DNA from: an uncultured Pseudomonadales bacterium
GTDB lineage: Bacteria > Pseudomonadota > Gammaproteobacteria > Pseudomonadales > Azotimanducaceae
Reading direction: 5' to 3'
Length of the DNA stretch: 32,000 bases
Assembly (NCBI GenBank): GCA_958296165.1
Contig: OY282447.1
Coordinates: forward strand, 3,601,154-3,633,153
How positions within the stretch are numbered: the first letter of the stretch is position 1; each line of letters opens with the position of its first letter. The translations under genes were made by a program, and so were the position numbers. Positions 10,015-29,791 of this stretch are shown one piece after another. The notes below the pieces were generated by a model. That model was not told the origin of the DNA. It did no database searches and saw nothing but the letters and a program-made list of their open reading frames with translations.

Positions 10015-10330
10015 TTCCTATCGCCCACCAACGTCGTCCGTGTTTATCGCTCGTCGTGTCTTGCGCGGCGTCACGTAGCCTCCTCGAGCAAGAACATAGC
10101 GGACGGTCGCAACATATCGTCTAAGGCGTAGGATACCAGTGCGAGGTGCCTCCTTATTCGAGGCTCGGGGCTCCGCACCCGATCGCGTTGGCAAGTAAAT
10201 GTCCTCTAACCGTAGTGCTAGGTGCTCCGAGTGGGAAGAGTAAATGTCCGTTGGCTCGTACAGTAGGGCGTCTGCGCCCGGTCACGAGCGTTGGGCACCG
10301 TAGCACCAATGCTGCATTCAGGGCTCCTTG

Positions 10331-12307
10331 ATGCCTGCCGCTAGTTGGCAAGACGCCATCCTCAGCGAGTTCACGCCCGGCGTCTCGCCGCTCACCGTAG
10401 TGGCAGACCCGGATGGCCTGCTGCAAGATGACGAAATCCTTGCCACTCTACAGAAACGCGGGTTCTCCCTCCTCCGGTTCGAGGACCCCATCGCCTTCCG
10501 CTATGCCTACGAGTCGCGCTACCGCCGGCGTGAAGCACAGGCGGATGCGGAGGGCCTTGTCGTCTTGGTGCCGGCACCACCAGCCGAACTGGACAACCTG
10601 CCCCACGACATCCTCACCCGCAGCCGGCGCCTAGCGTTCAGCCTTGCCGAGCTGTTCCCCAGCCTGAACCAAGCCGTGGTGTCGGCGCTGGAACCGGCGG
10701 ATCGTGCCGCGCTCTACGAGGCGGCGTCCCTCCAGCAGCCAGCGGCCTTGGGGGAGAAGGCCAGCAAGGATTTCGTGCTGCATCACGTCTTCGGCGTCGT
10801 CCCGGACCTGTTGCGAACGCCGGCTGCGCTGCTGTCCGTGCTTCTTCGCCGGCACTATGCCGGTCGGCGCGTTCCACCGGCGTTGGATGCGCGGTTCATC
10901 GAAGCGATCAAGGAGCGTTTCCAACATTGGCCGCTTGGCCGCATCGTGCCGGATCGGGAAGCGTTCTTCGATTTTCTGCAGCAGCGTTGGCGGATGTTTC
11001 TGGATGCGAGAGCGGAAGGCACAGGGGCCGTTAGGGAGGGCACCGATGCCCTCGCTAGCGTGCTGCCTTTCGATCATAAGGATGTGCGCGTTTACATAGA
11101 CAACCTGTTCGCGGAAGGTCTTCTGCACCCCATCTCCCACTGGCAGGCGGCCACGCTGAGCAAAACGTGGCTTGGCGTCGGCGTTCAGTGGGATGCTCGG
11201 CAAGATGCCGCCGCCCGGCTGGATCGGCTGCTCGCCATCGCTGCGGAGTCGCTGCCGGAACAGGAAGCCCGGCATCAGGATTGGTTTCGATTCGCCAAAG
11301 TGTGGGCTAGGGTCGCAGCACTCACGCAAGAGCCCGACGGCAAGCCAAACGAGAAACAACAGCAAGCAGTAGACGGCTTGCGAACGCGCATGGACGCAGC
11401 GTTCAACCGCTGGGTGGCAAGCCGCTACGCGAGCCTCGCCAGCTTGCCGCCGAACCCGCCGGTGATGCTGCACCACGTCCCGCGCTTCCTCGCACGGGAG
11501 ATCGGCGACGACACAACGACGAAAGCCGCACTGGTGGTTGTGGACGGGCTGGCTCTGGATCAATGGGCTGTCATGCGGCAGCAACTCGCCCAACAGCGCC
11601 CCGGCTGGCGGTTTCGGGAAGACGCCGCGTTCGCTTGGGTGCCCACGATCACGTCCGTTTCCCGCCAAGCCATCTTCGCCGGCAGCCCGCCGTTCTACTT
11701 TCCGAACAGCATCCACGCCACGCACAAAGAGGACATGCTGTGGCGAAGGTTCTGGACGGATCAGGGAATACAAGGCGCCGTCTACGCGAGAAGCCTCGGC
11801 GATGGCCCTTTCGAGGACGTGGCCGCGCTCGTTGACCAGCCCAACGTTCGTGTGGCCGGCTTGGTGGTAGACAAGGTGGATCGCATCATGCACGGCATGA
11901 CGCTTGGCACAGCAGGCATGCACAATCAAGTGCGGCAATGGGCGTCGCAAGGGCATTTCGCGGCACTGCTAGACCTGCTGTTCGCGCATGGGTTCCGCGT
12001 CTACATCACGTCGGACCACGGCAACGTTGAGGCCGCAGGTTGTGGACGGCCAAACGAAGGTGCGGTGGCGGACGTGCGCGGCGAACGGGTGCGCGTGTAC
12101 TCCGAAGAAGGCTTGCGCCGCAGCGTTGCCGATCGCTTCGCCGGTGCGTGGTCGTGGCCGGCGGAAGGTTTGCCAGCAGGCCATCTGCCCCTGCTCGCGC
12201 CCGGCCGCAAGGCATTCGTGCGCGAAGGTGAAAGGGTGGTGGCGCATGGGGGCGTGTGCATTGAGGAACTCATCGTGCCGTTCGTGCAGGTGGTTGCGGG
12301 CATATGA
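10331..12307 (+). CDS. pglZ: PglZ-domain alkaline-phosphatase-superfamily protein (BREX)
   Basis: ALVVVDGLALDQW, VPTITSVSRQAIFAGSPP and ITSDHGNVEA are PglZ/alkaline-phosphatase core motifs. About 658 aa. ATG 10331 is preferred over the TTG at 10328. Confidence 0.85.
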   Translation: MPAASWQDAILSEFTPGVSPLTVVADPDGLLQDDEILATLQKRGFSLLRFEDPIAFRYAYESRYRRREAQADAEGLVVLVPAPPAELDNLPHDILTRSRRLAFSLAELFPSLNQAVVSALEPADRAALYEAASLQQPAALGEKASKDFVLHHVFGVVPDLLRTPAALLSVLLRRHYAGRRVPPALDARFIEAIKERFQHWPLGRIVPDREAFFDFLQQRWRMFLDARAEGTGAVREGTDALASVLPFDHKDVRVYIDNLFAEGLLHPISHWQAATLSKTWLGVGVQWDARQDAAARLDRLLAIAAESLPEQEARHQDWFRFAKVWARVAALTQEPDGKPNEKQQQAVDGLRTRMDAAFNRWVASRYASLASLPPNPPVMLHHVPRFLAREIGDDTTTKAALVVVDGLALDQWAVMRQQLAQQRPGWRFREDAAFAWVPTITSVSRQAIFAGSPPFYFPNSIHATHKEDMLWRRFWTDQGIQGAVYARSLGDGPFEDVAALVDQPNVRVAGLVVDKVDRIMHGMTLGTAGMHNQVRQWASQGHFAALLDLLFAHGFRVYITSDHGNVEAAGCGRPNEGAVADVRGERVRVYSEEGLRRSVADRFAGAWSWPAEGLPAGHLPLLAPGRKAFVREGERVVAHGGVCIEELIVPFVQVVAGI

Positions 12308-14296: not shown

Positions 14297-16600
14297 ATGC
14301 TGGACAGGCTTGTCCATTCGATTAGGCGCATCGTGTGTCGGCTGTGGCATACGGTGAAGCCCTCAGCTCCGGCACCTACCGCTTCCGTGTCCCTTACGCC
14401 GCGATCTGACATGCCGGCGACCACCGCGGCTACCGAAGTCACGACAGACAGTGACGAGGCGACCCCACCGGCCCGAACCCAACCAGATCAAGGAAACGCC
14501 CTGCGTGAAACGCATGAGCAACCCGACCATGTCCGGCCGGCTGCGATTTCGGGTGGGGGCGCGCTCCTATTGGCAGAAGACGCACTTGGGACGTCGGATT
14601 CGCATCCCGCCAGTCCCGTCCAAGCTCCCCCGGGCCATACTAGTCACGTCGATAGCTTATCACGGCCGACCCCCGCTGACCGGGCGAAGAATCTTGAACC
14701 TGTCCAGAACGACATCTCGGACGAGCGGTCTGAACGCTCGCACGGACAACCGAAGCGGCGACTCAAACCCGTTGAGATGGGAGGTCAGCGGGCAGAGAGA
14801 ACGGACGGCCAAGCACCAACTCGGCGAGAACCGCAGGCCGCCCGCGCGGAGCTAACTTGCCGCAAGAACGCCGAGCTCCACCAATGGGAGCTCGTTCTAT
14901 CTGTTGGTGGTGAAAGCAGCGTTAAGGACGTACAGCACGATGGGAGGACGTTGGACTTGGCGACCGGAGAACACGCCCTCTCATCTTTCTGCAGCAATGT
15001 CACGGTCGTTTTCGCCAGCGGCGAGCGGAAGGAGATTACGTTAGAGGACAAAGGCGAACCACTCGTTTTCAAGCTGAAGAATTGGAAAGGAGACGGTCGA
15101 AAAGTCAAAGGTATCGGTGTGGGGCACTATATCGTCATCGCACCAAGGGCTTACAAGCGCACCGGGCGTGTGCCTGTCGAACAAGAGGCTTGCACAGATC
15201 CAAACTTCACCGCCCACTACTTCCTCAGCGACGGAAAGTCGCCGCACGAAATCGGTGGCTTTCGAGAGCGTGACGTGCCATCGACGCAGTCCGTCATTGA
15301 ACTGACGGGCAAGATCGCGTTCGATGACTCAGAACACGGCGATCTGTTTGTCGGTGATGCTCCAAGCCTGATGCACTCGAACGGCATTGTCTGGGCGCGG
15401 GTTGGCGAGGAGGGCGGTTGGAGGGGCGAGAGCTTCAAGACGAACAAGCGCGATGTCGGCACGGTTCTGGGTAGCCGCCAAGGACGGTTTTTTGTCCGTG
15501 TATACGATGCTGACATGGAACTGCTGGACAGCGACCAGTTCAGATATCTGCGTGATCTCGAGGAGATTCTCGTGAATGGAAAGCCATACTCCGAAGACCT
15601 ATTGCTCGTTCCTACAACTGCTGGACATCTGCCGACCGAGGTGCGATTCATCGGTGTCGACGGTGCCAACGTTCATCCAGTATTGTCGCCTGAAGCCAAA
15701 CGAACGAACGTTAGAGGTACGAGTGTTCTGGCCGATCCCCATCCGGATGCCGATCGCATATCATGTAAAATAGAGGCCGACACGGGTAGCGTCGACGTTG
15801 TATTGGCTCTACCACGCGTTTGGTGGCACATTGCACAAGAAGACATGGATGCCTTCGAGTGGAGCGATGTGCCGACTGTCATGACGCGCCAGGAGTTCTG
15901 CAATCGCGGTTACGACGGCGTAGCCATGCGACTGCGAGCTCCACGCCGAATCAAGTCGGTACGCGTCGGCTTCGACGACCAACATGATCGCAGCTATCCC
16001 TTGAAACTCGGGGAGATAAACGGTCTGATTCCACTGCTCGACTTTGTCAACTACCCGCAGATCGATCAACGTCTGAGTGAGGATGCATCACTCGACATTG
16101 AGTGCGATGGAGTCACAGCGACCGTCATCCGCATTGCCGCCGACCCTATACCTGCTATCACTTCCTTCGTGTGCGAACCCGCAAAGACCGTCGCTGGGGA
16201 GCCAACCACATTGCGTTGGGAGGCCCGTAACGCCAGTGAGGCCAGAGTTGTCATCAACCGCAGTCCCCAAGTCGGTACTCTTGAATCGAACGGGAGCCTA
16301 GAAGTTCGACCGTTGAAGACCACGACCTACACGCTGGCACTCATCGTGCCCGGCGTCCCCGACGTGACGAAGGCCGTCACGGCGACGGTGTTGTCTTTGG
16401 TCGAGACCGAGAGCCGATACGCTCGCGTAAAGTGCCTCGGTGGATGGAGGCGCGGCAAAGGATTCAGCCGCCGCGAACTTGAGGCAGCTGGCTTGACGAC
16501 CGCCGATGCCAACCGTCGGTCGATCTTCATTGACGGACGGCGTAGAAGCATGCATCGGGAAAATGTCGAGACCATCGGGAGGAGGTCGGTCAATGGCTGA
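14297..16600 (+). CDS. Unknown 767-aa partner of the DUF1998 helicase (disordered N-terminus, beta-rich core, Ig-like module, eL13-like basic tail)
   Basis: Single long ORF whose stop overlaps the helicase start (ATGGCTGA). The first ~190 aa are Pro/Thr/Asp/Arg-rich, and an alternative start exists at ATG 14777. The Ig-like stretch is ITSFVCEPAKTVAGEPTTLRWEARNASEARVV..TTTYTLALI. The tail is GKGFSRRELEAAGL..IFIDGRRRSMHRENVETI. Confidence 0.7.
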   Translation: MLDRLVHSIRRIVCRLWHTVKPSAPAPTASVSLTPRSDMPATTAATEVTTDSDEATPPARTQPDQGNALRETHEQPDHVRPAAISGGGALLLAEDALGTSDSHPASPVQAPPGHTSHVDSLSRPTPADRAKNLEPVQNDISDERSERSHGQPKRRLKPVEMGGQRAERTDGQAPTRREPQAARAELTCRKNAELHQWELVLSVGGESSVKDVQHDGRTLDLATGEHALSSFCSNVTVVFASGERKEITLEDKGEPLVFKLKNWKGDGRKVKGIGVGHYIVIAPRAYKRTGRVPVEQEACTDPNFTAHYFLSDGKSPHEIGGFRERDVPSTQSVIELTGKIAFDDSEHGDLFVGDAPSLMHSNGIVWARVGEEGGWRGESFKTNKRDVGTVLGSRQGRFFVRVYDADMELLDSDQFRYLRDLEEILVNGKPYSEDLLLVPTTAGHLPTEVRFIGVDGANVHPVLSPEAKRTNVRGTSVLADPHPDADRISCKIEADTGSVDVVLALPRVWWHIAQEDMDAFEWSDVPTVMTRQEFCNRGYDGVAMRLRAPRRIKSVRVGFDDQHDRSYPLKLGEINGLIPLLDFVNYPQIDQRLSEDASLDIECDGVTATVIRIAADPIPAITSFVCEPAKTVAGEPTTLRWEARNASEARVVINRSPQVGTLESNGSLEVRPLKTTTYTLALIVPGVPDVTKAVTATVLSLVETESRYARVKCLGGWRRGKGFSRRELEAAGLTTADANRRSIFIDGRRRSMHRENVETIGRRSVNG
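16577..16585 (+). promoter_or_regulatory. Shine-Dalgarno sequence for the helicase gene
   Basis: GGGAGGAGG lies 7 nt upstream of ATG 16593, inside the 3' end of the upstream ORF. Confidence 0.6.
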
Positions 16601-19600
16601 CACGGAAGACATATGGCGTTGGCCGGAAATGGTTCGTCAACGCTACGAGAACTATCTGAGAACTTCGTTCTTCTTTAGGGACCCGCAGCTAAGGGCGTCT
16701 TTTCAGACGGCACTACAAGAAGACGGTAGCCTTCTCAAGGGGCCGTTTACTGAAGTGTCCGGAGGCTTCGAGACTGGCACAGATACGCGGGCGTTGGCCG
16801 AAGAATGCTTTCCATGCAAGAGCGCGAGTCTTGTTCCGGCGCTGATTAGTGGCCCGCTATATGTGCATCAAGAACGAGCCGTGCGCTCGACATATATCGA
16901 CGAACAGAACATTGTCGTCGCGACCGGCACTGCTAGCGGTAAGACGGAGAGTTTCCTCTATCCAATCCTGTACGAGTTGTATCGCGAGCACCTCGCAGGA
17001 GAACTCGATGAACCGGGTGTGCGGGCAATGATCTTGTACCCGATGAACGCGCTGGCGAACGATCAGAGGGAGCGCCTAGGCGAGATATGCGGCGAGTTGC
17101 GCGCCGCTGGATCGGGATTCAAGCCGACGTTCGGCCAATATATCGGACAGACGCCCTATAACGCTAAGGACAGCTGGCGTAACGCCGCAGCACGAGAGGA
17201 AGAACGCTTAGCCGGAGAACTCGTCTTCCGGGACGAGATGCGAAATGCACCTCCTCACATCTTGATGACGAATTATTCGATGCTGGAGTACCTCCTCATC
17301 CGCCCAGACGACAGCCCTCTGTTCGACGGTAGTCGAGGTGCCCGGTGGAAGTTCATCGTGCTTGACGAGGCGCACCAGTATCGCGGTGCCAAAGGCATGG
17401 AAATGGGCATGCTGATTAGGCGGCTAAAGCAGCGGCTCCGAGACGGCGGCCGGCGCGAACCGTTCCGCTGCATCGCGACCAGCGCAACCCTCTCCTCCGG
17501 CGAAAGCGAGAAGGACAAGCAAGTCGTAGCCGAGTTTGCGAACGAGCTCTTCGGAGAGTCATTTTCGGCATCGGGCGTCATTTTCGGCAAGCCACAGCGG
17601 ACAGTGGCCGATGGACGTCCGCGCCGCTACCATGCCTTCCTGCGTGCCTTGGAGGGGGCGTTTCTCGTCCACAGAGGAGGCGTAGATGCCGTCGTGCTCA
17701 ACCGTCGAGGCGGAAGCGACGAAGGGTCCGGAGACCCGTTGGAGGTCGCACTCTGCCGCGAATGCGGCCAGCACTACTACGTTGGCCGAGAGCGGGGCGG
17801 AAAGCTAAAGGAGGCCGTTCGAGATCCCAGCCAGCCTGACTTCGGCGTGACCTATTACCTACCTACGGAGGAGGGCGGCGAGCAGCTATGCAGGTGCTGC
17901 GGCGCGCTGTCGAAGTCTAAACCCGGCTGCGACTGCGGAGCGACGGTTCGCGTGAAGAAATGCCAGTCCCGAGATGGTCAACCCGATCAGTTGAAGCAAT
18001 GCGAAGCGTGTGGCTATCAACGTGGCGGCATCGGCGACCCGGTGCAGGAGATAGTGCATGGTTCGGACGGACCCAATAGCGTCATTGCGACGGCGCTGCA
18101 CGAACTGTTGCCGGAAGGCAGGCGCAAAGTGCTGGCGTTTGCCGACAGCCGTCAAGAGGCCGCGTTCTTCGCATGGTATGCCGAGGACTCGTACGAGAAG
18201 CTGCGTGACCGAAATCTCATGCTGCGCGCCATCAGATCTGAAGAGGTCGATCCTGAAGGCCTGTCCGTAGATGACCTCAGAAACCGGCTGCGTAAGCAGT
18301 GGCAGGAGGCCGGCCTGTTTAGCGGCGCTGACACCGGTGAACAGCAGAACCGAAAGGTGATGACGTCGATCCTTCGAGAGGCGCTGACTGAAGAAAAGAG
18401 ACTCTCCTTGAGCGGTGTGGGCTTGATCAAGTGGTCCGTGCGGATCCCAGCACATTTGAGCTTGCCGGAGACGATGCGACAGCCGCCATGGAACTTCACG
18501 GATGGTGAGGCGCGCCGCCTTGCTGAATATCTCCTCGACGAGTTGCGGCCCCGCCGGGCAATGAGCCTTCCTAGCGACGCAGGAACACCCAGTTGGGACG
18601 ACATAGCCGCACGGCCTCAGCAGGCGTGCAGTGTCGGCGCGCCAAAGGGCGTTCGGAAGGTCTTCCAGTGGGGAGCCCCCCAATCGGCGGTCGTGAAGCA
18701 TTTTCTACGCCGATTGCTCGCGGACACGGATCTGCCGGATAAACAGAAGCAGGAGATGTCGACGAAACTCATGAAGGATGTTTGGCGCATGTTGACTAGT
18801 GCCGAAGAGCCGATCCTCAAGCGTGTAACTGCGAGCACATTTCGACTCGATCCGCGCTGGCTGCGGATTGAACTTGCCGCACACGACGAGATCTGGGAGT
18901 GCGACACCTGCGCGACTTTGAGCAACCACAACATCCGTGGCGTCTGCCCTCGGTATCGGTGCCCAGGAACCTTGTCAGCCGCGGGTCAGGCGCATCTCAA
19001 TACGAACCACTATCGAATCCTCTACGAGAGCGCTAAGCTGCCGCCTGAGCTGCGTGCGGAAGAACACACGGCACAGATCGAAAGCGACGAAGCACGCCAA
19101 AGACAGGACAGGTTCAAGACAGGACGCGTCCACCTTCTGAGCTCCTCCACTACGTTCGAGGTCGGCGTCGATCTCGGTAATCTGGAAGCTGTGTTTCTCC
19201 GCAACGTACCACCCGAGCCGTTCAACTACGCGCAGCGAGTTGGGCGAGCGGGTCGACGAGGGACTCCGGGGTTGGCGCTGACCTATTGTCGCCGCAACCC
19301 GCATGATCTCTATCATTACGAGGATCCGGTCGACCGCGTGATTGGAGGCGCGGTGCATCCTCCGCGCCTGCGGATGACTAACGATAAGATCATTCTACGG
19401 CACATGGTTGCCACCACTTTGGCGATGTTCTTCCGGGAGAATGGCGAACGCTTTAACAACGTGGAGAACTTCGTCGGAGACTGGTCAACTCCCCACGCGG
19501 CAGACGACGTCAGGACGTTCTGCCAAGGCAATAGATCGTTGGCGGACTCGTTTCGCCAGACCGTTCCCGAGAATATGCATCGCCGGGTGGGCCTCGGGAA

Positions 19601-20822
19601 TGACGCTTGGATTGACAACGTAGCGGGGCCGCAAAGCCGTTTCGGGCAAGTAGAAGCGGAGGTGTGCGCCGACTATCGGCATATGAAGACGCTGAGGGAA
19701 CAGCTCTTCGAACAAGGCGAGGACGGTCGTATGAGCCGCATTGGGAGTCGCATGAGAACGATCGCCAAGGAACGAACCTTGAACTTCCTCTCCCGCAAGG
19801 CCGTCATCCCAAAGTATGGATTTCCCGTAGATGTTGTCGAACTCGACACGCGGCCGGCAGACGGCAATCCGACTGGCGTCGTACTCCAGCGAGACCTATC
19901 TCAGGCCATCGCCGAGTACGCCCCCGGAGGCAAAGTGGTGGCCAATAAGCTGGAATGGGAGTCCTACGGCGTGAAGGCCGTGACCGGCAAGGCGTGGCCA
20001 GTGCGCTTTTACCAATATAGTGACGCACGCGACTTCGAGCAATGGGACGATGGTGATCCGTCCATCCCGCCCAACGGGCGAAAGTACCTCATTCCAGAGT
20101 TCGGTTTCGTAACGCCGCTGTTCGAAAGAGCCAAAGAGCCTCACGGGCGAGTTCGGCGGCTCTATACAACGCGGCCTTTTTTCCGCGGCTTCGAACCGGG
20201 TGCCCATCCAGAAACGGAAATCGTCCATGGCGTCCAAGTGACGAAGGCGGTACCGGGAACTCTGGTCATCCTTTGCGAAGGCAAGAACAGGAAGGGGTTC
20301 TATATCTGCACTTCCTGCGGCGCGCACATGACGGGCGCGAAGGGAAAGCACCGGTCGCCGTGGGGTTCCGATTGCGGAGGCACGCTTAGGAACTTCTCGC
20401 TTGGTCATGAATTGGTCACAGATATCGTTCGCCTGCAGTTTCCGCGACTCGGCGGCGAGTGGGACGCCTACTCCGTCGCCTACGCCCTTCTACTCGGTGC
20501 GGCGACAGCACTGGACGTGCCGGATACTGATCTGAACGTGACGATTGCTCGCGGGGACCATTCGAAAGAGTCCGCAATCGTGCTGTACGACGACGTTCCC
20601 GGCGGCGCAGGGCTGGTGGTGCAACTGGAACGGGAGAGCGTCTTCGACGAGGTGCTGAGCAACGCTAGAGAGCGGGTCCAAGGCAATTGCGGCTGCGACT
20701 CAAGCTGCTACGGCTGCCTACGCAGCTACCGTAACCAGTTTGCGCACCCGTATCTTGACCGAAAGGCGGCGCTGGCGACCTTGAGCTTCGACGACACGAC
20801 ACCGCGCACAAGGATGGCCTAG
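16593..20822 (+). CDS. DEAH-box SF2 helicase with multiple Cys clusters and a C-terminal DUF1998 domain (DruE-like, or a DrmA-DrmB-fusion-like protein)
   Basis: Helicase motifs ATGTASGKTESF, FIVLDEAHQYRG, ATSATL and QRVGRAGRRG. Cys clusters CRECG..CRCCG..CDCG, CEACG, CDTC..CPRYRC and CTSCG..DCGG. DUF1998 signature VPGGAGLV...GCDSSCYGCLRSYRNQFAHPYLDR. The start is taken at ATG 16593 (strong SD) rather than 16506 of the ORF track. Confidence 0.88.
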   Translation: MADTEDIWRWPEMVRQRYENYLRTSFFFRDPQLRASFQTALQEDGSLLKGPFTEVSGGFETGTDTRALAEECFPCKSASLVPALISGPLYVHQERAVRSTYIDEQNIVVATGTASGKTESFLYPILYELYREHLAGELDEPGVRAMILYPMNALANDQRERLGEICGELRAAGSGFKPTFGQYIGQTPYNAKDSWRNAAAREEERLAGELVFRDEMRNAPPHILMTNYSMLEYLLIRPDDSPLFDGSRGARWKFIVLDEAHQYRGAKGMEMGMLIRRLKQRLRDGGRREPFRCIATSATLSSGESEKDKQVVAEFANELFGESFSASGVIFGKPQRTVADGRPRRYHAFLRALEGAFLVHRGGVDAVVLNRRGGSDEGSGDPLEVALCRECGQHYYVGRERGGKLKEAVRDPSQPDFGVTYYLPTEEGGEQLCRCCGALSKSKPGCDCGATVRVKKCQSRDGQPDQLKQCEACGYQRGGIGDPVQEIVHGSDGPNSVIATALHELLPEGRRKVLAFADSRQEAAFFAWYAEDSYEKLRDRNLMLRAIRSEEVDPEGLSVDDLRNRLRKQWQEAGLFSGADTGEQQNRKVMTSILREALTEEKRLSLSGVGLIKWSVRIPAHLSLPETMRQPPWNFTDGEARRLAEYLLDELRPRRAMSLPSDAGTPSWDDIAARPQQACSVGAPKGVRKVFQWGAPQSAVVKHFLRRLLADTDLPDKQKQEMSTKLMKDVWRMLTSAEEPILKRVTASTFRLDPRWLRIELAAHDEIWECDTCATLSNHNIRGVCPRYRCPGTLSAAGQAHLNTNHYRILYESAKLPPELRAEEHTAQIESDEARQRQDRFKTGRVHLLSSSTTFEVGVDLGNLEAVFLRNVPPEPFNYAQRVGRAGRRGTPGLALTYCRRNPHDLYHYEDPVDRVIGGAVHPPRLRMTNDKIILRHMVATTLAMFFRENGERFNNVENFVGDWSTPHAADDVRTFCQGNRSLADSFRQTVPENMHRRVGLGNDAWIDNVAGPQSRFGQVEAEVCADYRHMKTLREQLFEQGEDGRMSRIGSRMRTIAKERTLNFLSRKAVIPKYGFPVDVVELDTRPADGNPTGVVLQRDLSQAIAEYAPGGKVVANKLEWESYGVKAVTGKAWPVRFYQYSDARDFEQWDDGDPSIPPNGRKYLIPEFGFVTPLFERAKEPHGRVRRLYTTRPFFRGFEPGAHPETEIVHGVQVTKAVPGTLVILCEGKNRKGFYICTSCGAHMTGAKGKHRSPWGSDCGGTLRNFSLGHELVTDIVRLQFPRLGGEWDAYSVAYALLLGAATALDVPDTDLNVTIARGDHSKESAIVLYDDVPGGAGLVVQLERESVFDEVLSNARERVQGNCGCDSSCYGCLRSYRNQFAHPYLDRKAALATLSFDDTTPRTRMA

Positions 20823-21352
20823 GCACCGCCATCCTCCGCTGTACAACCGGTGCAGGATCGGGTCGGCGCGTGTTGGCGCAAACGCGGCGTCAATTGGTGA
20901 GCCGCTATCCCACCACACCGAGCTCGAGAGCCAGTGTTGAAGGTGCAAAGGCGAGGCACCGGCCCCGCCGGCGTAGCAAATGCGCTCCCCGAAGAGACGC
21001 TACGACCACGAACGCCCTACGGCCGACTCGACAGCCATGAGATTCAAGCGCTCACGGATGACATCGAGCACGAACTGCGCCGGCGCGTCCTCGCTGACAC
21101 CCGCGACAGAGCCATGCTCCGCAACGCCGTAGCGTAGCGCGCGCATCGGCTCAGTCCGCGTCGCTGGCGCAGGTGCGACTCACGAGCCGCCGCCGACCGG
21201 TCGAAAGGCCAGCGGGCGATCCGCCCTCGGACTGCTACTGCATGGACCGCCGCCGCGGCTTAGCGGACTTCGCGGCCGAAGAACCGCCGTTTGCGCTTCG
21301 GTCGGGCCTTCCGTGCCAGTGCGTCGCGCTCCTCACGCTCTTGACGCTTGCG

Positions 21353-21469
21353 CTTCACGCCCACGAAGCGCATCGTCGGCCGGCACACCTCCGCGATGCC
21401 GTCCGCGTCGTTGGCGTCGTTCTTGTTCGACTTGACGTACGGCGACACGAACTGCGGACTCGTCAGCAG
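21353..21469 (-). mobile_element. IS110-family transposase gene, internal fragment in inverted orientation
   Basis: LLTSPQFVSPYVKSNKNDANDADGIAEVCRPTMRFVGVK is the IS110 segment that normally follows ...GHEV directly. Similarity is lost after VGVK. Confidence 0.7.
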
Positions 21470-21731
21470 CGCCCTGCTGCACATAGTCTCTGACTTGCTG
21501 AACAGCCCAGCCATCCGTGGATGTTTTTGGATCATGGAACTTCGCTTGAACATAGATAGTCAGTCTGGCTCTGTCGAACGAGGCGCGGATGTCGACGTCG
21601 CCGTCGTCCCTGTTCTTTTGTGGAGTGCAGACGTCGCTTGCGCCAATTCGCCGGAAGTACCACTTCAACAGCGACTCGAACTTTCCCGGACTTAACTCGT
21701 TGTAAATGAGGCACAAGAGCTGTTCTGCCAA
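21470..21731 (-). pseudogene. Mrr_cat-type (PD-(D/E)XK) restriction endonuclease N-terminal fragment, truncated at the IS110 piece
   Basis: MAEQLLCLIYNELSPGKFESLLKWYFRRIGASDVCTPQKNRDDGDVDIRA...LTIYVQAKFHDPKTSTDGWAVQQVRDY fits the Mrr catalytic pattern (FE..L...G, DxGxD, QxK). The ORF then runs into IS-derived sequence. Confidence 0.55.
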
Positions 21732-22210
21732 TTCGGGGGTACGCGAGCGTAGCGCTATCGGTCCAGGGCGATTGCATTTTGGGAATTCTTAGTGAATTAC
21801 GTGGCCAAGTAGGCCCCTGCCGGGTCTGATTTTTCGCCTCCAAACGCCCCGAATGGGCCTGACAGACAGTTTGAGAGGTCGTTTGCCGCTGTTCGACGGT
21901 CCGTTTAGGCCACGAGACGACATTTTATGTCCAAATGCAATCGCCCTGACGGAACAGTCTCGCGGCGTCGGAGCCGGTCTGCGACTGGTGCCTGATGACC
22001 AGCAACGCCGGCGTGCGCGCCGACGCAACGCGGGACTTGCTCACATGAGCGCCGTGGTCATCGCCAGCGTCAGCGGCATCTCGGGCGGCTGCGCCACCCT
22101 GACCCTGGCCCGGGCCGCGACCTCCCGATCCCGCTGGCCAACCGCCTTCTCGCGGACCTCGGCCTTCTTCATGATCCGGGCGGCGCGACGTTCGATGAGC
22201 GACGCCTCCT

Positions 22211-22879
22211 TCACCCGGGCCTTGGCGCTTCGCCCTGGGACACCGCGACGTGCCGGCGCTTCGATCCCTTCACGCCGCGCTCCAGTCCGAACGGTTCGCC
22301 GACATGCGCGAAAACATCGTCCTGCATCCGCGAGACCGCCGCGCCGACGACCGCCCGGCTCATCGACGCGCGCTTGCGCCCGGACAGCTCGGCGTCCATC
22401 GCCCGGCGCACCGCCGACATGCCCCATTGCAGTTTGCCGTCCTCGACGGCGGCGGGGATCGTCGTGACGTGGACGTGCCATTGGGTCTCGTCGAGGTGCA
22501 GCGCGGCGTCCGTGATCCACGAGTCCGGCATCCGCAGCTCGCACCACGCCAGGCAGGCCTTGCCCCACTCGCGGGCCTTGTCGACGGACCAGCCCTCGCC
22601 GATCCGCTTCGCCCCGACGAACAGGAACTCGGCGTGGGGTTTGGGCTTCGTACCCCGGCGTCTCGCCAGGTCCTTCTTCCTGCGGGCCATGATGTTCGCC
22701 AGCTCGTCGTCGGGTAGAGTCGGCGCCAGGGACTCCACCGAGAGCGTCTCGCCGGCGGGGGATTGCATCTTCGGAAAGGCGTCGGTGACGGGGGAGCGGA
22801 CCTCTCCGCGCACGTGCATCCGGCGACGTGTCGAAGCGGAGGCGGAGACGCGCTCGAACCGGTGCAGCAGAGTGGGCAT
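22211..22879 (-). CDS. MobV/Pre-type relaxase (plasmid recombination enzyme family), possibly frameshifted at its 3' end
   Basis: AALHLDETQWHVHVTTIP carries the HxDExxxHxH motif, and FGLERGVKGSKRRH matches the conserved l.RG..gS...H motif. A coiled-coil-like continuation (KARVKEASLIERRAARIMKKAEVREKAV) sits in another frame at 22041-22230. Confidence 0.65.
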   Translation of the reverse strand: MPTLLHRFERVSASASTRRRMHVRGEVRSPVTDAFPKMQSPAGETLSVESLAPTLPDDELANIMARRKKDLARRRGTKPKPHAEFLFVGAKRIGEGWSVDKAREWGKACLAWCELRMPDSWITDAALHLDETQWHVHVTTIPAAVEDGKLQWGMSAVRRAMDAELSGRKRASMSRAVVGAAVSRMQDDVFAHVGEPFGLERGVKGSKRRHVAVSQGEAPRPG

Positions 22880-22912
22880 GCGCCCACTCTACCACCCGGA
22901 TTCGGCGGGGGG
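22864..22912. repeat. 49-bp repeat copy 1, containing a 9-4-9 hairpin over the mob start codon (oriT/RSA-like candidate)
   Basis: GCAGCAGAGTGGGCATGCGCCCACTCTACCACCCGGATTCGGCGGGGGG. The inverted repeat AGAGTGGGC-ATGC-GCCCACTCT lies at 22869-22890. 47/49 identical to 28254-28302. Confidence 0.8.
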
Positions 22913-22967
22913 ACGGCAAGCCATTGGTTTTGCAAGCACAAACACGTGCGCGAAGTCACGCTACACG

Positions 22968-25547
22968 CTAGAAGACATCTCCAATCAGCTTGCCGATCGC
23001 TTGGGCGTCAAGGCCCCCTCTGCGGTCGTCTGATGTCTTGATCAGCATGCGTTCAGCGTCTTTGCCTTCGCTCCAAGGCACTATTCCATCCTCCAGATAT
23101 TCCTCGCGTTTGCGCTCCCACCGTGCGTGATAGGCCGGATCATCCAACAACCCCAAGTGTTCCCAATAGTAGGTTGTCCCGCTTGCGTCGTCCTCGACCG
23201 TGAAGTCAGGGTAGCGAGTACGTCCTCCAGAGAGTACGAGGGGTTGCTCATATGCGTAGTCAACGCCGGCCGCATGCAGTTTGTCGGCGATGACGAGCTC
23301 GGACTTGGAACGCACAAGATCGCCTCTCTCGGTGCGATGGATGAGATCCTCCTCAAGGAACCTACTGGTGCCTACGTTGCGCACTTCCGTCGGAGCGGGC
23401 GGAGCGAACAGATTGGTCATACGGCGTGCGATCTCGGAGTACTCGTCGCCGACGTATCTCCGATAGTCTTCTATTGGTCCCTGATGAAGGACGACAAGCC
23501 TGTCCTGATGCCGTGTGAGTGCGGTGTAGAGCAACTCGCGAGAGAGCAGCGCGCACGGGTTCGTCAGCACTACAAAGGTCGTTTTGAATTCACTGCCTTG
23601 CGTCTTGTGTACTGTCAGGCAATAGGCGAGTTCGAGTGTGGGCTGTTGATCCTCGCCGAACTCATGCTCCAAAAAGCTGTACCTGCGGCCAAGTTGTCCC
23701 GCGAACTCAACCTCGGTCTTCCAAGGCGGCTTCCTGTATGGTGCTTTCTTTCCCTTGTATTGCCCGACGACAATCCCAATGTCGCCGTTGGCAATGTAGG
23801 ACTCGCCGTCACTTGGGTACACGTCCTTCTTTTTTCTTCTCTGATTACGAACATTGATTATCTTGTCGCCGTAGAGAATGCCTTGGGTACCCAAAGGCTT
23901 CGGAACTTTTCTATATCTTGCTTCTGTGAGCTTCCTCGCCTCCTTGCGAAACCGGGCCTGTATGGCTCGATTCAGCGCGTCCACACCGGTCATGCCGGCC
24001 CTACGCGGCGTTAGTACTTGCCAGCTCTCGACCTTGCTCGCGGCACCAGGGGAATGCTTGGACTCAGGATGGAAGAACGCGTGCGGCGCGTTACGATACC
24101 GAGAGCCGCCTATCGACTCCTCGAAGCCGAGCTCGTCTTCAGGGCTAGACAAGCCCAAGCTATGTACAAGCTCGTCCATGAGCCGTTGCTCTAGCTCTGC
24201 GCTGTGGTCCCACCGCACTAGGCGCAGCCTCTCGTCGGAGCGACCGAGGCTGCTGAGGGCGGAATCCGCCTCTGGGTCGAGCGGCTGGCCATTGAAGTGC
24301 GAAGCGAGCAAAACGTCAGGCCGTGCCGTACCCTGTTGTCGTCTCGGTACAGTTAGTTCGGCGTAACCGATCGAACAGCGAGGGAACTGACTCTCTACGC
24401 CATCAGGCCGGAGCTTCCGAACGATGTCTACGAAGGGGCGCCCGGCGCCGATTGGCGGAAGCTGGCGTGGATCGCCGACGAGCACGAGACGTTCTACGCC
24501 GGCGAGCGCGTCGAGCAAGGCAGCCAGTTGCTCTTCCGTAAGCATGGAACACTCGTCCACGACGACTGTGCGATAGTCTCGGCAAGGGGCTGCCTGTGGG
24601 TTAGGGAAATACCGCCCAGTTGTGCTGTCGTAGCGGTTCAGGCCGATGAGGAACTGCGCCAGAGTTTTGCCGTGGCCGCGTAGGCCAGTCCGTTCCTCTA
24701 GGCGTACGCGAGCTTTGCCGGTGGGTGCTAGCAGCAAGATTCCCTCGTCGGCAACCCCGCTGATCTCGCAGAGCATACGAATCAGTGTCGTCTTGCCGGT
24801 GCCGGCAGGGCCGATGAGGACAGAGAGGCGCGAAGAGAACACAACCTCCAATGCGGCGGCCTTCTCTTTCCTGCCTCGTCTCTCTGTATCTCGTTCAGCA
24901 TCATCTGCTGGTAGCGGGCCTAGGGTGTTCTCTATCAGCGCAGGCCATTCGTGCTCGGCCGCATGTTTGCGTCCGCGCACTCGCTTGTTCACCTCTTTGC
25001 CGATGATTGATCTGCAATTCGTTAGCCGATCGACTTGGTAGGCCGTTTCGCCTGCGGCCGTTGTCGTACATCGGACGACGGTATCGAAAGTGGCCTGCAT
25101 AGCGTCGAGTACGTTGTCGCCCAACGGACAAGGCGGTTGAAGCACGCGCTCTCTGGCACGCCGTATGACCCAACTCTTCGGTAGCAGTGTATGGCCCTCT
25201 AGGGCGGCATCCTCAAGAAGGTCTACAACTAGGGATCGCACTCTACGGCCGTCCGTAGGATCATCGACGCGAGACGGTTCGGTCATGGGAAACTGTTGAC
25301 GTAGAGCGTCGTCGGGGAAAACTCCTCGATCCACGGTGGCGAAGGCGATGGGATTTTCGGCAGTGCGGTCCTGTTCAAACAGGAGGAAGGGGTTTTTCAG
25401 AAGCTCGCGGTCCGCCGCTTCTACCCCAGCATCCTCACGCTTCTGCGGGTCGTAGAAGCGAAGTGCCTGATCTTCGCTCAGTGCACATCGGCTCAGGAGA
25501 TTGAGAAGTGCTCGACGATTCGGGCGAGATGCTGCCAGCCATTGCAC
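22968..25547 (-). CDS. RecD/TraA-like SF1 helicase (AAA_30 and UvrD_C_2 type) with a C-terminal PD-(D/E)XK-like nuclease domain
   Basis: Helicase motifs LIGPAGTGKTTL, VVVDECSML, LVLVGDPRQLPPIGAG and CLTVHKTQGSEF. The C-terminus VRSKSELVIADKLHAAGVDYAYEQPL...RYPDFTVED..YYWEHLG looks nuclease-like. It has a GTG start with no SD and overlaps the upstream ORF by 55 nt. Confidence 0.8.
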   Translation of the reverse strand: MQWLAASRPNRRALLNLLSRCALSEDQALRFYDPQKREDAGVEAADRELLKNPFLLFEQDRTAENPIAFATVDRGVFPDDALRQQFPMTEPSRVDDPTDGRRVRSLVVDLLEDAALEGHTLLPKSWVIRRARERVLQPPCPLGDNVLDAMQATFDTVVRCTTTAAGETAYQVDRLTNCRSIIGKEVNKRVRGRKHAAEHEWPALIENTLGPLPADDAERDTERRGRKEKAAALEVVFSSRLSVLIGPAGTGKTTLIRMLCEISGVADEGILLLAPTGKARVRLEERTGLRGHGKTLAQFLIGLNRYDSTTGRYFPNPQAAPCRDYRTVVVDECSMLTEEQLAALLDALAGVERLVLVGDPRQLPPIGAGRPFVDIVRKLRPDGVESQFPRCSIGYAELTVPRRQQGTARPDVLLASHFNGQPLDPEADSALSSLGRSDERLRLVRWDHSAELEQRLMDELVHSLGLSSPEDELGFEESIGGSRYRNAPHAFFHPESKHSPGAASKVESWQVLTPRRAGMTGVDALNRAIQARFRKEARKLTEARYRKVPKPLGTQGILYGDKIINVRNQRRKKKDVYPSDGESYIANGDIGIVVGQYKGKKAPYRKPPWKTEVEFAGQLGRRYSFLEHEFGEDQQPTLELAYCLTVHKTQGSEFKTTFVVLTNPCALLSRELLYTALTRHQDRLVVLHQGPIEDYRRYVGDEYSEIARRMTNLFAPPAPTEVRNVGTSRFLEEDLIHRTERGDLVRSKSELVIADKLHAAGVDYAYEQPLVLSGGRTRYPDFTVEDDASGTTYYWEHLGLLDDPAYHARWERKREEYLEDGIVPWSEGKDAERMLIKTSDDRRGGLDAQAIGKLIGDVF

Positions 25548-26761
25548 AGGTTGGGCTTCAGGAGTCGAGCCGTGGGCTGCGGCAGCGAAGTCGGGCTCGC
25601 CATCACGTCGTCGAGCAGCTTCCAGTGGTCGGACTCACCTTTACGCTCACCTAGTAGCTGGATGTCGTAGGCGATCAAGCTGCCATGTTGAAGGCCCCAC
25701 TCATAGCCGAAGGCAGAGAGCGCGGAGCCAAGACCAGGAAATGGGCCGCGGGCCTGCCACAAGTTGTTGAGCTCTGTGTTGACCCACGCCAGCGCTTTGT
25801 CCCATGGTCCTTCGACCTTGTCGCGGATACGCTGGAGAACGGCGGCGCAACGTATGAGGGAAGCCACTGCACCATCGTCGGTGAGCAATTCAGAGCCGTA
25901 GGAGTAGCTCTCGAACAACTCATTCGGCGCAAAGGCAACGAACTCCTCGGGATCAAGACCGTCTCGCTCCGCGAGTTTGGCTATCTCCTGATATGGGAAG
26001 ATGAATCCGTCTAGTTGGCCGGCCGGCGTCCTCAAAGAGTGACCGATGTTTCGTTCCCACAGTACGCTGCGAAGCGGAGGCTCGGCGGTGCTATAGCGGT
26101 ATTCGGTACTCCTACCCACGGACGTGACGCGCCCTACGCCCACGATGGTCCGCCCAGACTGCTCGGAGAGCGGCGTCTGCTTGGCGTAGAAGAAGCACAG
26201 CGACCCTTGCGGGCGGATTGCGCTGAAGAACGTGTCGAGCAACGCCAGCTGATTGTCCTTGTCCTGTATCCAAGCGGTGCGGAAGCCGAGGTTTGGTTCA
26301 CGGTCGGGCGCGTATCCAAGCTTCAGCTGCTCAGCTAGACCGGCATCCTGCCTTCGGTCGTTTCCCTCAACGTCCTCGCGCAGCATCCAGCGAAAAGGAA
26401 CGCAAGCGGCTGTGTATGGTGGTTGCACGAAGCGCGTGGACGCGAAATGACTATGCGTGTCCGATGTATGCACATACGGATGATCCACCGTGCGGACGAT
26501 CTCGAAGGGCGCCATGAACGAGGCCCGTTCCTTGATGCATGGCGGCATGTCCTTCTCGGTCAGCTGATCGACGCGCTTGCCAGCGCAGCTTGTCTCAATG
26601 TCGTCTCGACGACCGTCGGCGATTCGTCCAAGCACCAGACAACTGGTGTTGTTCAAAGGCATTGAGCACACCGTGCCGGCCCAGCCACTATCGTGCCAAG
26701 GCACCCGTATCGTGATGTGATGTCGTGGAAGCTGCCGTGCGCCCGCTGCGAGGTCGACCAA
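25493..26761 (-). CDS. Unknown 422-aa protein coupled to, or originally fused with, the helicase-nuclease
   Basis: TTG start 26761 is preceded by GAGGAG 7 nt upstream. N-terminal motif ITIRVPWHDSGWAGTVCSMPLNNTSCLVLGRI, with a central SLCFFYAKQ...RTIVGVGRVTSVG beta-rich core. Confidence 0.7.
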   Translation of the reverse strand: MVDLAAGARQLPRHHITIRVPWHDSGWAGTVCSMPLNNTSCLVLGRIADGRRDDIETSCAGKRVDQLTEKDMPPCIKERASFMAPFEIVRTVDHPYVHTSDTHSHFASTRFVQPPYTAACVPFRWMLREDVEGNDRRQDAGLAEQLKLGYAPDREPNLGFRTAWIQDKDNQLALLDTFFSAIRPQGSLCFFYAKQTPLSEQSGRTIVGVGRVTSVGRSTEYRYSTAEPPLRSVLWERNIGHSLRTPAGQLDGFIFPYQEIAKLAERDGLDPEEFVAFAPNELFESYSYGSELLTDDGAVASLIRCAAVLQRIRDKVEGPWDKALAWVNTELNNLWQARGPFPGLGSALSAFGYEWGLQHGSLIAYDIQLLGERKGESDHWKLLDDVMASPTSLPQPTARLLKPNLCNGWQHLARIVEHFSIS

Positions 26762-26900
26762 TGTCTCTCTCCTCTATTGACGTACCTGCTGAGCATACAC
26801 GATGGCTAGTAACGTCCAATGAGCATCCGTCTAACGAGAAGCGAATCTAATGAGGCAAGTTCAAGGGGGGCGATTTGGGATCACGAGGATGATCGTGACA

Positions 26901-27555: not shown

Positions 27556-28068
27556 ATGAGCGACCAACACGAACTCAGCACATTGATAGACGCAGCCTCA
27601 CAGCTCTTGAGTACCAATATAGAGAACGGCGAGTACGATGACATCGGACCAACCAGACTCGGCGTCGAGATCGATTTACGCGGCAAAATCAGAGCGTTAG
27701 CTCAACAGTCTTTTGGCAGGTGGTCCTTGCCCGCCTCAGCCGATGCATGCATATTCGTGTGTGCGTATCTGCTAGCCGATAAAGTCGTTTCGCGCCAACG
27801 CCGCCAAGAGGTGGTGAAACGCGACGAAGCCGCCAAGGCACCCCATGAGAGCGAAGAACTCGTCGAACTGACAAGCCGTCTGCTACTTGCCCTTTGCTTA
27901 TGGAATGAAGAGATGGGCATATCGCTCTTCGCTTTGGAGCGCATCGAGGGCCTTCGACCGTTGATCGAGTACATGCGGGACGAGAGGGAGAGCCACGGTT
28001 CGTCGCAAGAACTGCGGCGCTCCATGCAGCGATCCGAGGCCGGCGACGGCCCGGCAATCGAGTCTTGA
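27556..28068 (+). CDS. Hypothetical 170-aa protein
   Basis: AAGGAGG at 27544-27550, 5 nt before ATG 27556. MSDQHELSTLIDAASQLL...; lower GC than its surroundings. The upstream part of ORF-track entry 27235-28068 is probably not translated. Confidence 0.6.
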   Translation: MSDQHELSTLIDAASQLLSTNIENGEYDDIGPTRLGVEIDLRGKIRALAQQSFGRWSLPASADACIFVCAYLLADKVVSRQRRQEVVKRDEAAKAPHESEELVELTSRLLLALCLWNEEMGISLFALERIEGLRPLIEYMRDERESHGSSQELRRSMQRSEAGDGPAIES

Positions 28069-28253
28069 CCGTGCCGACGATGGCCAGCGGTCCAGCGCCG
28101 GCGCCGTCGCCACCGACTCGTCCGACGACGCGCGCCAGCGCAGGCCGCCGGGACCGCCGTCGCCTAGGCGGGTCAGCGGCGCCTCCGCCGTCAGTTCGTT
28201 CGCCGTTCGGCTCGTGTTGCAACGCGAAAACTGGTGTTGCAACGCGAACCTCT

Positions 28254-28302
28254 GCGGCAGAGTGGGCATGCGCTCACTCTACCACCCGGATTCGGCGGGG
28301 GG
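28254..28302. repeat. 49-bp repeat copy 2 (orphan mob 5' end and hairpin)
   Basis: GCGGCAGAGTGGGCATGCGCTCACTCTACCACCCGGATTCGGCGGGGGG. On the minus strand it is followed only by MPTLPQRF (compare MPTLLHRF of mob). It is preceded by two 15-bp direct repeats GTGTTGCAACGCGAA at 28214-28228 and 28234-28248. Confidence 0.8.
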
Positions 28303-29263: not shown

Positions 29264-29791
29264 CTAGTACTTTGGTTTCCCTGCTAGTTGAAGTGCCGCC
29301 TCCAACAGTTTTCGATAATATTCGTCAGCGTTAGATGTACCTAAATGACCTAAATGCTGGAACTTTACACTTGTCATTTCCTGCTGATACCACTCCTTAC
29401 GGTCGTGTGCACCACTTCCGTGATACCGGAAGCGATGCATGATGGACGCCCCTGTTTCTCCAACATACAGTAAACAATCGTTGGCATCGTACGCAGCATA
29501 TACATAGGAACCTTCGTTACTTATTGGGGTTTTTTGCGCCCTGTTAGGCTCCCTCTCAATGTCGTCCTTCGTTACCGTGCTAGCGGTCCCCATAAAGTTA
29601 CGAAGGACACGTTCGGCGAATTGACAGGCTTCTTTGTACAAGCCGTCCGCCGACGATGACGGCGATTCCCTCGCCGGGACAGGCTGAAAATGCGACTCCG
29701 TCGCCGGGACAGGCTGAAAATGCGACTCCGTCGCCGGGACAGGCTGAAAATGCGACTCCGTCGCCGGGACAGGCCGAAATGTCCTGCTCAT
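29264..29791 (-). CDS. GIY-YIG nuclease family protein with an N-terminal decapeptide repeat
   Basis: SYVYAAYDANDCLLYVGETGASIMHRFRYH...YYRKLLEAAL...KPKY fits the GIY-(10)-YVG..R..H..E pattern. GAGGA lies 9 nt upstream of the ATG. Its N-terminus is FRPVPATESH, then FQPVPATESH three times, then FQPVPARESP. It sits in a low-GC cassette. Confidence 0.7.
   Translation of the reverse strand: MSRTFRPVPATESHFQPVPATESHFQPVPATESHFQPVPARESPSSSADGLYKEACQFAERVLRNFMGTASTVTKDDIEREPNRAQKTPISNEGSYVYAAYDANDCLLYVGETGASIMHRFRYHGSGAHDRKEWYQQEMTSVKFQHLGHLGTSNADEYYRKLLEAALQLAGKPKY
29661..29776. repeat. 30-bp tandem repeat (3 perfect units at 29671-29760 plus partial units on each side)
   Basis: The unit CGCCGGGACAGGCTGAAAATGCGACTCCGT is repeated head to tail, in frame within the 5' end of the GIY-YIG gene. 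Confidence 0.95.

Follow-up and report, generated by a model that had tools for sequence, protein, structure and literature searches.

Gene organization of the locus

We investigated a 32,000-nt stretch of DNA (the window) from an uncultured Pseudomonadales bacterium of the Azotimanducaceae (GenBank assembly GCA_958296165.1, contig OY282447.1, positions 3,601,154 to 3,633,153 of the forward strand). Our subject is a pair of overlapping open reading frames (ORFs) on its minus strand, which we assign to PDC-S68, a candidate defence family in the PADLOC collection. ORF1 (25493..26761, 422 aa) has a TTG start codon at 26759-26761, and ORF2 (22968..25547, 859 aa) has a GTG start codon; the two overlap by 55 nt (25493-25547). 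A Shine–Dalgarno-like GAGGAG (26769..26774) lies 7 nt 5′ of the TTG, and the same start is used by an intact orthologue (P0244) with the N-terminus MVDLAAGARQ. No Shine–Dalgarno-like sequence was found upstream of the ORF2 GTG, where the DNA reads CGGCTCGACTCCTGAAGCCCAACCT. The frame of ORF2 is already open from 25634, 87 nt upstream of the GTG, and is preceded there by a TGA stop codon (25635-25637). Directly 3′ of the ORF2 stop codon lies a weak terminator-like hairpin (22944..22961, minus strand), which is suggestive only, since such hairpins in our consensus scan do not exceed the shuffled expectation. Residues 20-32 of ORF1 are VPWHDSGWAGTVC. A first-pass annotation of this DNA had reported the two ORFs with the same coordinates and overlap, a VPWHDSGWxGxVC N-terminus and a good Shine–Dalgarno sequence for the 422-aa ORF, and a helicase GTG that lacks such a sequence and is open from 25634. 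The ORF table and the sequence itself agree with it in all of these respects.

One gene split by a missing C

In PADLOC profile searches, where PDC-S68 is represented by the models PDLC05064-05066, residues 13-413 of ORF1 match positions 5-389 of PDLC05065 (E = 9.5e-134, 445.6 bits) and residues 6-858 of ORF2 match positions 387-1218 (E = 0, 1063.7 bits). The profile has 1221 positions in total, and at the sequence level the placement of both ORFs on it is far beyond chance. The two profile halves meet at positions 387-389, thereby locating the junction at about 25523-25535. A DNA alignment with a 93%-identical copy on an ENA metagenome contig (L001) gives the junction as CTCGCCCCGG in L001 and CTCGCCCGA in the window. 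One C of a four-C run is absent at 25524..25526 (minus strand), where the window has GCCCG and L001 has GCCCCG, and this 1-nt deletion puts the downstream part of the gene into the -1 frame. When one C is inserted, a stop-free 1264-aa ORF with the junction GWQHLAPNRRALL results. Exactly this junction is found in P0244 (1262 aa). An intact, 92%-identical sister copy (L084) also carries GCCCCG (GCATCTCGCCCCGGATCG) and encodes the same protein junction.

We searched the reconstructed protein by tblastn against 80 loci from species-representative GTDB genomes of many phyla, and in about 70 of them residues 1-1264 are read in one uninterrupted frame. The protein search made with ORF2 is likewise dominated by full-length homologues (1255-1275 aa), and the N-terminal part is always fused to the PDC-S68 helicase. 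Judged by these alignments, ORF1 and ORF2 are the halves of one PDC-S68 gene (22968..26761, minus strand), which has about 1264 codons once one C is restored and is predicted to encode a single polypeptide of about 1264 aa. The first-pass annotation had wavered between one frameshifted gene of about 1260 aa and strict coupling of two genes. The former proved right, with the frameshift inside the interval that it had proposed (25493-25634), and strict coupling is rejected.

The same loci bear on the idea of a genuine two-gene or programmed-frameshift system, in which a sensor and a helicase-nuclease would be made separately, by translational coupling or -1 slippage, as a regulatory design. The 55-nt overlap, the helicase frame that is open 87 nt upstream of its GTG and a few database fragments that also end near GWKRL would fit such a design. 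However, with about 70 of the 80 loci in one uninterrupted frame, the split is neither a conserved two-gene arrangement nor a programmed frameshift; copies with 92-93% identity are continuous at the shift position, and the few disrupted copies among the 80 loci break at positions other than that of the window gene. Neither a slippery XXXYYYZ heptamer nor a homopolymer of four or more residues exists within 25480-25640, and the GTG lacks a Shine–Dalgarno sequence. We consider such a system extremely improbable. Programmed -1 frameshifting and transcriptional slippage were both rejected on the missing heptamer, the missing long homopolymer and the non-conserved shift.

We also considered a conserved split, or a frameshift hotspot, near GWKRL. 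A search with the 422-aa ORF gave only fragments, none longer than 736 aa, and several of these end near GWKRL. The DNA of the 80 loci and the search with the 859-aa ORF returned mostly intact genes for about 1260 aa, which rules this idea out; the protein search seems to be biased to matches of about the query length. The junction sequence, with either three or four C residues, was not found in JGI metagenome contigs. In genome annotations, a single gene flagged as frameshifted should replace the separate entries for the 422-aa 'hypothetical' product and the 'AAA family ATPase'.

State of the window copy

The reconstructed protein keeps 264 of 269 conserved columns (at least 97% conserved in an alignment of 70 intact orthologues), with conservative replacements in the other five; among intact members, 0-8 of these columns deviate. 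All catalytic motifs are intact in the window copy. In the comparison with L001, the part of the gene ahead of the shift has a dN/dS ratio of 0.246 and the part behind it one of 0.232. Except for the frameshift, the window copy is undecayed, and the conserved columns together with the low dN/dS on both sides of the shift indicate that the lesion is either very recent or an assembly artefact.

Should the C have been lost only in sequencing or assembly, the bacterium's own gene would be intact and functional, with 1264 codons. The lesion is a single-base indel in a short homopolymer within an otherwise pristine gene, in which every other feature is intact. No lesion is present at this site in the sister copies with 92-93% identity, and several other disrupted copies stem from long-read metagenome assemblies, all of which speak for an error. 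On the other hand, the window has seven further long defence ORFs (305-1438 aa) that are all uninterrupted, which suggests few errors locally. A 422-aa and a 627-aa product are also called in the genome's public record, real debris (Mrr, IS110 and Mob_Pre fragments) surrounds the gene, and a relative assembled from HiFi reads has its own, different 1-nt deletion. An error of this kind is a possibility of some weight, although we lean away from it, and we take a real mutation to be roughly twice as probable as an artefact. Overall, the best explanation, which we think is probably correct, is a real PDC-S68 helicase-nuclease defence gene that is interrupted here by the loss of one C.

From the three-C allele, translation of ORF1 would give only the N-terminal module, with nine out-of-frame residues at its end. 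Because the GTG lacks a Shine–Dalgarno sequence, expression of the downstream helicase-nuclease should be weak at best. As sequenced, the window copy would make a 422-aa sensor fragment and, at most, a helicase-nuclease fragment with poor initiation. Barring an error of assembly at the missing C, it is hence probably non-functional.

The helicase part

A helicase core of superfamily 1B (SF1B), similar to that of RecD2, occupies 23478..24872 (minus strand; ORF2 residues 226-690, residues ~640-1095 of the reconstruction), as identified by Pfam and by a sequence search of the PDB. The Pfam matches are AAA_30 (3.6e-27), AAA_19 (3.1e-24), UvrD_C_2 (23490-23630, 3.3e-11) and SH3_13 (23760-23975, 4.2e-4), the last of which corresponds to a RecD-type insert. 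They agree with the RecD-like helicase motifs that the first-pass annotation had seen in the 859-aa protein. The Walker A motif GPAGTGKTT (24786-24812, G651-T659 of the reconstruction) is invariant in the family, as is DECSM, which includes the Walker B motif DECS (24546-24557, D736-E737). Both Walker motifs, the later helicase motifs and the RecD-type SH3 insert of SF1B enzymes are thus present in the core. The closest solved sequences in the PDB search are Deinococcus radiodurans RecD2 (3e1s, 4.4e-25), Escherichia coli RecD and T4 Dda, which are motors that move 5′ to 3′ on single-stranded DNA (ssDNA). Between the N-terminal module and the core lies a family-specific linker with a RecD2-like N-terminal region (24873..25532, minus strand; ORF2 residues 6-225, residues ~415-640 of the reconstruction). 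The RecD2 model TIGR01448 aligns residues 97-377 of ORF2 to its positions 200-461, and the alignment with 3e1s starts at residue 166.

These similarities invite the reading that the protein is a housekeeping or conjugative helicase of the RecD2/TraA type, or a maintenance protein of a mobile element, and not an immune protein. Its best named sequence models are indeed RecD2, RecD and TraA, a Mob_Pre-like fragment adjoins the gene, and homologues are present on large plasmids. However, the scores are far below the family cut-offs: 211.6 bits against 500 for RecD2 (TIGR01448, with residues 97-377 of ORF2 as the best stretch), 149.6 against 310 for RecD (TIGR01447), 89.7 against 590.45 for TraA_Ti and 20.9 against 2212 for TraI, with only the P-loop region matching in these last two. 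No relaxase domain was found by Pfam, and 22 of the 24 homologue-bearing plasmids are typed as non-mobilizable. The extra N-terminal region of about 415 aa and the nuclease domain are invariably present. The family is scattered unevenly over phyla, its flanks are unrelated, and its neighbours are defence genes. We regard a housekeeping or conjugative role as very unlikely. The first-pass annotation had named two outcomes that would speak against a defence module, namely that the homologues are conjugative TraA or housekeeping RecD helicases without a link to defence islands and that the 422-aa ORF has no conserved homologues next to such helicases. The scores and neighbours above disagree with the former, and the constant fusion of the module to the helicase disagrees with the latter.

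The predicted C-terminal nuclease domain

The C-terminal ~125 residues (22971..23345, minus strand; ORF2 residues ~735-859, residues ~1140-1264 of the reconstruction) form a domain of which the AlphaFold2 (AF2) model has a pLDDT above 90 in its core. In a Foldseek search of the PDB, the best match is the R2 RLE (9dou, E = 2.9e-3, probability 1.0), and the list is uniformly composed of PD-(D/E)xK proteins, which include Bax1, DrdV, TT1808, bunyaviral cap-snatching endonucleases, AbaSI/PvuRts1I, McrC, Can2/Cdn1 and Hjc. Sequence searches of the PDB and Pfam with the C-terminal 170 aa gave no match, and only the fold search was informative. The predicted motifs are RSKSE (23298-23312), YPDFT (23199-23213) and WEHL (23154-23165), all on the minus strand. 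The series SKSE..YE..YPDF..WEHLG, at residues 746-798 of ORF2, is nearly invariant in the family, and it corresponds to the nuclease-like block noticed in the first-pass annotation. Across 61 sequences, the S, K, E, D, W, H and G residues of these motifs are invariant. The conserved residues of the domain are K1153, E1155, D1186, E1201 and H1202, with the D of YPDF and the E of WEH being invariant. The model suggests that the C-terminus has a PD-(D/E)xK nuclease fold (fold match at E = 2.9e-3 or above), with putative catalysis.

The N-terminal module

The N-terminal module (residues 1 to ~415) is predicted by AF2 with high confidence (pLDDT 91.6, pTM 0.83). In the model, a β-rich core (25997..26722, minus strand; residues 14-255) contains the VPWHDxGWxGxVC motif and the invariant C32, C41 and C75. 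It is followed by a helical bundle (25523..25993, minus strand; residues ~257-413) which ends at the frameshift; DSSP assigns helices over residues 257-416 of the model. Invariant polar residues of the module are H15, R19, H23, D24, N38, D53, E56, E78, H94, E155, Q166, N170, Q171, K194, R204, E220, H241, S242, R244, E291, D296 and R338. W320, W326, W335, R338, G339, P342 and G345 are conserved in the bundle. The three invariant cysteines and the many invariant polar residues suggest, as a pattern, that the module has a metal site and, in addition, a pocket for catalysis or for the binding of a ligand or nucleic acid.

The module has no match in Pfam even at E ≤ 10 (five sub-fragments), none in NCBIfam and none in a profile search of the PDB. 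Foldseek found no PDB match below E = 0.1 and none in BFVD. Its top PDB matches, 2hd9 (E = 0.13) and 2p5d (E = 0.25), are not significant, having TM scores of 0.28 or less and root-mean-square deviations of about 10-12 Å. These proteins (PH1033 and MJECL36) are EVE/PUA-like. A reading of the module as an EVE/PUA-like reader (EVE, ASCH or YTH) was rejected, for it had these two insignificant Foldseek matches only, and Pfam, the PDB profile search and BFVD were empty. The module is thus an orphan domain without a detectable relative in Pfam, PDB and BFVD, and the first-pass description of the N-terminal region as uncharacterised still holds after its structure has been confidently predicted. The orphan family is large, comprising 1352 clusters at 50% identity (E ≤ 1e-3), and nearly all full-length members are about 1240-1270 aa with the module at the N-terminus.

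Genomic context and mobility

The window contains a defence island, consisting of a BrxC C-terminus, PglXI, an embedded SIR2-HerA pair, a BREX type 3 PglZ and a DruE-type helicase. The DruE-type helicase gene is followed by Mrr, IS110 and Mob_Pre fragments and then by the PDC-S68 gene, so that BREX-3, SIR2-HerA and DruE all lie within 20 kb on one side of it. L001 aligns only to 22910-26807 of the window. Homology stops at the gene borders, which indicates that the PDC-S68 gene travels as a single-gene cassette. In relatives, the upstream neighbour is a DRT1-type reverse transcriptase-nitrilase (Drt1a) in 10 of 76 cases, a type IIG restriction-modification (R-M) gene in 4 of 76 and DrmMI in 3 of 76, and the downstream neighbour is DrmD in 9 of 69. 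The gene is directly upstream of drmA and a DUF1998 gene in Bacillus cereus plasmids, and it adjoins a NACHT protein gene in a Rhizobium plasmid. PDC-S68 is essentially absent from phage genomes. Thus, the gene lies in a defence island, and its relatives lie beside or inside DISARM, DRT1, type IIG R-M and NACHT loci.

In ERZ19489113, the close copies have housekeeping genes around them and are accompanied by a 1491-aa SACS/DEAD helicase and BrnT. In the sister copies with 92-93% identity, the PDC-S68 gene is convergent with a gene for a 1491-1500-aa SACS-like/DEAD/ResIII helicase, which is followed by a BrnT toxin gene, forming a small island. The helicase gene is at 11637-16139 in L001, at 13644-18119 in L084 and L085, and at 13844-18325 in L086. 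The L001 copy has an independent 1-nt deletion of its own at its position 10074.

A DRT1-type reverse transcriptase-nitrilase gene is directly upstream of PDC-S68 and on the same strand in at least nine genomes of different phyla (L005, L007, L015, L016, L023, L027, L030, L031 and L032, at ~10001 or equivalent). The copies are about 1245 aa long and 72-82% identical to one another, and the intergenic gaps of -4 to +83 nt are operon-like. Judged by this arrangement, DRT1 and PDC-S68 form a conserved two-gene cassette. We found no description of this pairing in the literature searched.

Several other features of the island were observed. The SIR2-HerA pair (5757-8848) is nested in the BREX type 3 system, between PglXI (2983-5760) and PglZ (10328-12307). 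With PADLOC E-values of 2.9e-165 (SIR2) and 8.2e-178 (HerA), it is a textbook case of defence within defence. Between the BrxC end and PglXI, a plus-strand gene (951-2996) encodes a 681-aa protein with Schlafen AlbA_2, HATPase_c_4 and Fic-like_C domains, for which PADLOC gave only weak pAgo and Aga matches. A 767-aa ORF (14297-16600, plus strand) is directly upstream of, and overlaps, the gene of the DruE-type helicase (16506-20822). It has no PADLOC match, its residues 716-760 show a short and unusual similarity to ribosomal protein L13e, and it may be an unrecognised DruH-like partner. The gene debris between DruE and PDC-S68 (21260-22879, minus strand) includes an Mrr_cat restriction endonuclease fragment (21333-21731), a Mob_Pre-like fragment (22211-22879) and an IS110-like transposase fragment (21260-21553), which was identified by eye and has no match in Pfam.

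A 58-nt direct repeat with 93% identity (22855-22912 and 28245-28302), including the palindrome AGAGTGGGC-ATGC-GCCCACTCT, brackets a 5.4-kb segment that contains the PDC-S68 gene and a small divergent ORF (~27556-28068, plus strand). The homology with L001 ends at 22910, the inner edge of the left repeat. The repeat may mark the boundary of a cassette, or it may be an att-like site or an element similar to a repetitive extragenic palindrome; it matched no tRNA or Rfam element. Farther along, a 175-aa ORF (29264-29791, minus strand) with a weak GIY-YIG match has three tandem 30-nt repeats near its N-terminus (29662-29779, encoding PVPATESHFQ three times).

Proposed mechanism and significance

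From the architecture and the neighbours, we infer a role of PDC-S68 in defence. The intact protein would be a one-gene anti-phage or anti-plasmid effector. Its RecD2-type motor may load on single-stranded or 5′-tailed invader DNA and translocate 5′ to 3′; possible substrates would be replication intermediates, injected ends, and rolling-circle and conjugative ssDNA. The motor would feed the DNA to the C-terminal PD-(D/E)xK nuclease, which would then cut it. The cysteine-bearing N-terminal module, presumed to be a sensor or regulator, may serve for recognition of the non-self target or for autoinhibition on host DNA. A bolder and rather unlikely extension is that the module is a domain of a new kind, with a sensing or enzymatic function, which gates the RecD2-type helicase-nuclease; it might, for instance, depend on a metal and read a protein or a nucleic-acid feature that is specific to phages. 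PDC-S68 would then represent a widespread form of immunity with a new recognition principle, possibly acting with DRT1.

Several points weigh against the reading of this locus as an interrupted helicase-nuclease defence gene. The frameshift is a feature of the assembly and may be an artefact. The polarity and substrate of the helicase are extrapolated by analogy from RecD2, RecD and Dda. The match of the modelled nuclease fold is borderline by E-value (2.9e-3 at best), and the WEHLG strand lacks the canonical lysine of (D/E)xK, which leaves catalysis as a prediction. No significant match underlies the role of the N-terminal module, for which the EVE/PUA-like similarity (E = 0.13-0.25, TM score below 0.3) is an insignificant lead only. 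The PDC candidates are described as untested (bioRxiv 10.1101/2024.01.29.577857) and as unvalidated (bioRxiv 10.1101/2025.01.08.631726), and the name PDC-S68 was found in no paper of our literature search. Searches of the literature by this name, by protein accessions and by architecture keywords found no characterisation.

PDC-S68 is one of 145 catalogued phage-defence candidates, and it now has a defined three-part architecture. The candidate catalytic residues are K657, D736/E737, K1153, E1155, D1186 and E1201/H1202, to which C32, C41 and C75 can be added. B. cereus and Rhizobium plasmids and Pseudomonas aeruginosa are tractable sources of the family, with WP_074585669.1 (B. cereus) and WP_237358103.1 (Rhizobium) among the products of intact genes. 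If the family is active, it would be a large and phylogenetically broad helicase-nuclease immune family with a structurally orphan sensor domain. Its interest lies in its size, in the orphan N-terminal module and in the unexpectedly tight pairing with DRT1 in other genomes.

Comparison with known systems

Based on its sequence, the window gene is a disrupted member, or a member with an assembly error, of the already catalogued PADLOC candidate family PDC-S68. The PDC candidates come from Payne et al., who applied guilt-by-embedding to BREX, DISARM and type I R-M systems (bioRxiv 10.1101/2024.01.29.577857). The window gene shares with PDC-S68 the near full-length, collinear match of both ORFs to PDLC05065 and the occurrence as a single-gene cassette within or adjoining known defence systems, which was found in the window and in relatives. 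Unlike typical members, which are single ORFs, the window copy is split by a 1-nt deletion, and the family itself is a computational candidate. The nearest species-level relative of the gene is in a Ca. Azotimanducaceae metagenome-assembled genome (75-76% identity).

In common with D. radiodurans RecD2 (3e1s/3gp8), E. coli RecD and T4 Dda, the motor has the helicase core with its RecD-type SH3 insert, and it also has a portion of the N-terminal region of RecD2. Unlike RecD2 and RecD, the PDC-S68 protein is below the equivalog cut-offs, has about 415 extra N-terminal residues and a C-terminal nuclease, and is outside a recBCD context. The predicted fold of the C-terminal ~125 residues resembles that of motor- or sensor-linked PD-(D/E)xK nucleases (R2 RLE, Bax1-XPB, DrdV, AbaSI/PvuRts1I and Can2), and, as in these nucleases, acidic residues are conserved in the SKSE, PD and WE motifs. 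PDC-S68 differs from them in having no Pfam or PDB sequence match and in the strand after PD, which has E-H-L instead of (D/E)-x-K; its invariant lysine is located in the SKSE helix.

The first-pass annotation had proposed a candidate helicase-nuclease defence module and had likened it to Nhi, Hna and Hhe. The candidate has gained a family (PDC-S68), a C-terminus with a predicted PD-(D/E)xK fold and defence-gene neighbours, while the resemblance to these three systems is architectural only. PADLOC models named Nhi, Hna or Hhe matched neither ORF at E ≤ 1e-3, the presence of all three in the release being unconfirmed. Nhi, Hna and Hhe have Upf1-like SF1 or SF2 motors and differently placed nucleases, and the N-terminal module of PDC-S68 has no detectable relation to any part of them. 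What PDC-S68 appears to share with them is the design: a helicase motor and a nuclease in one polypeptide, encoded by a single defence gene and presumed to degrade invader DNA.

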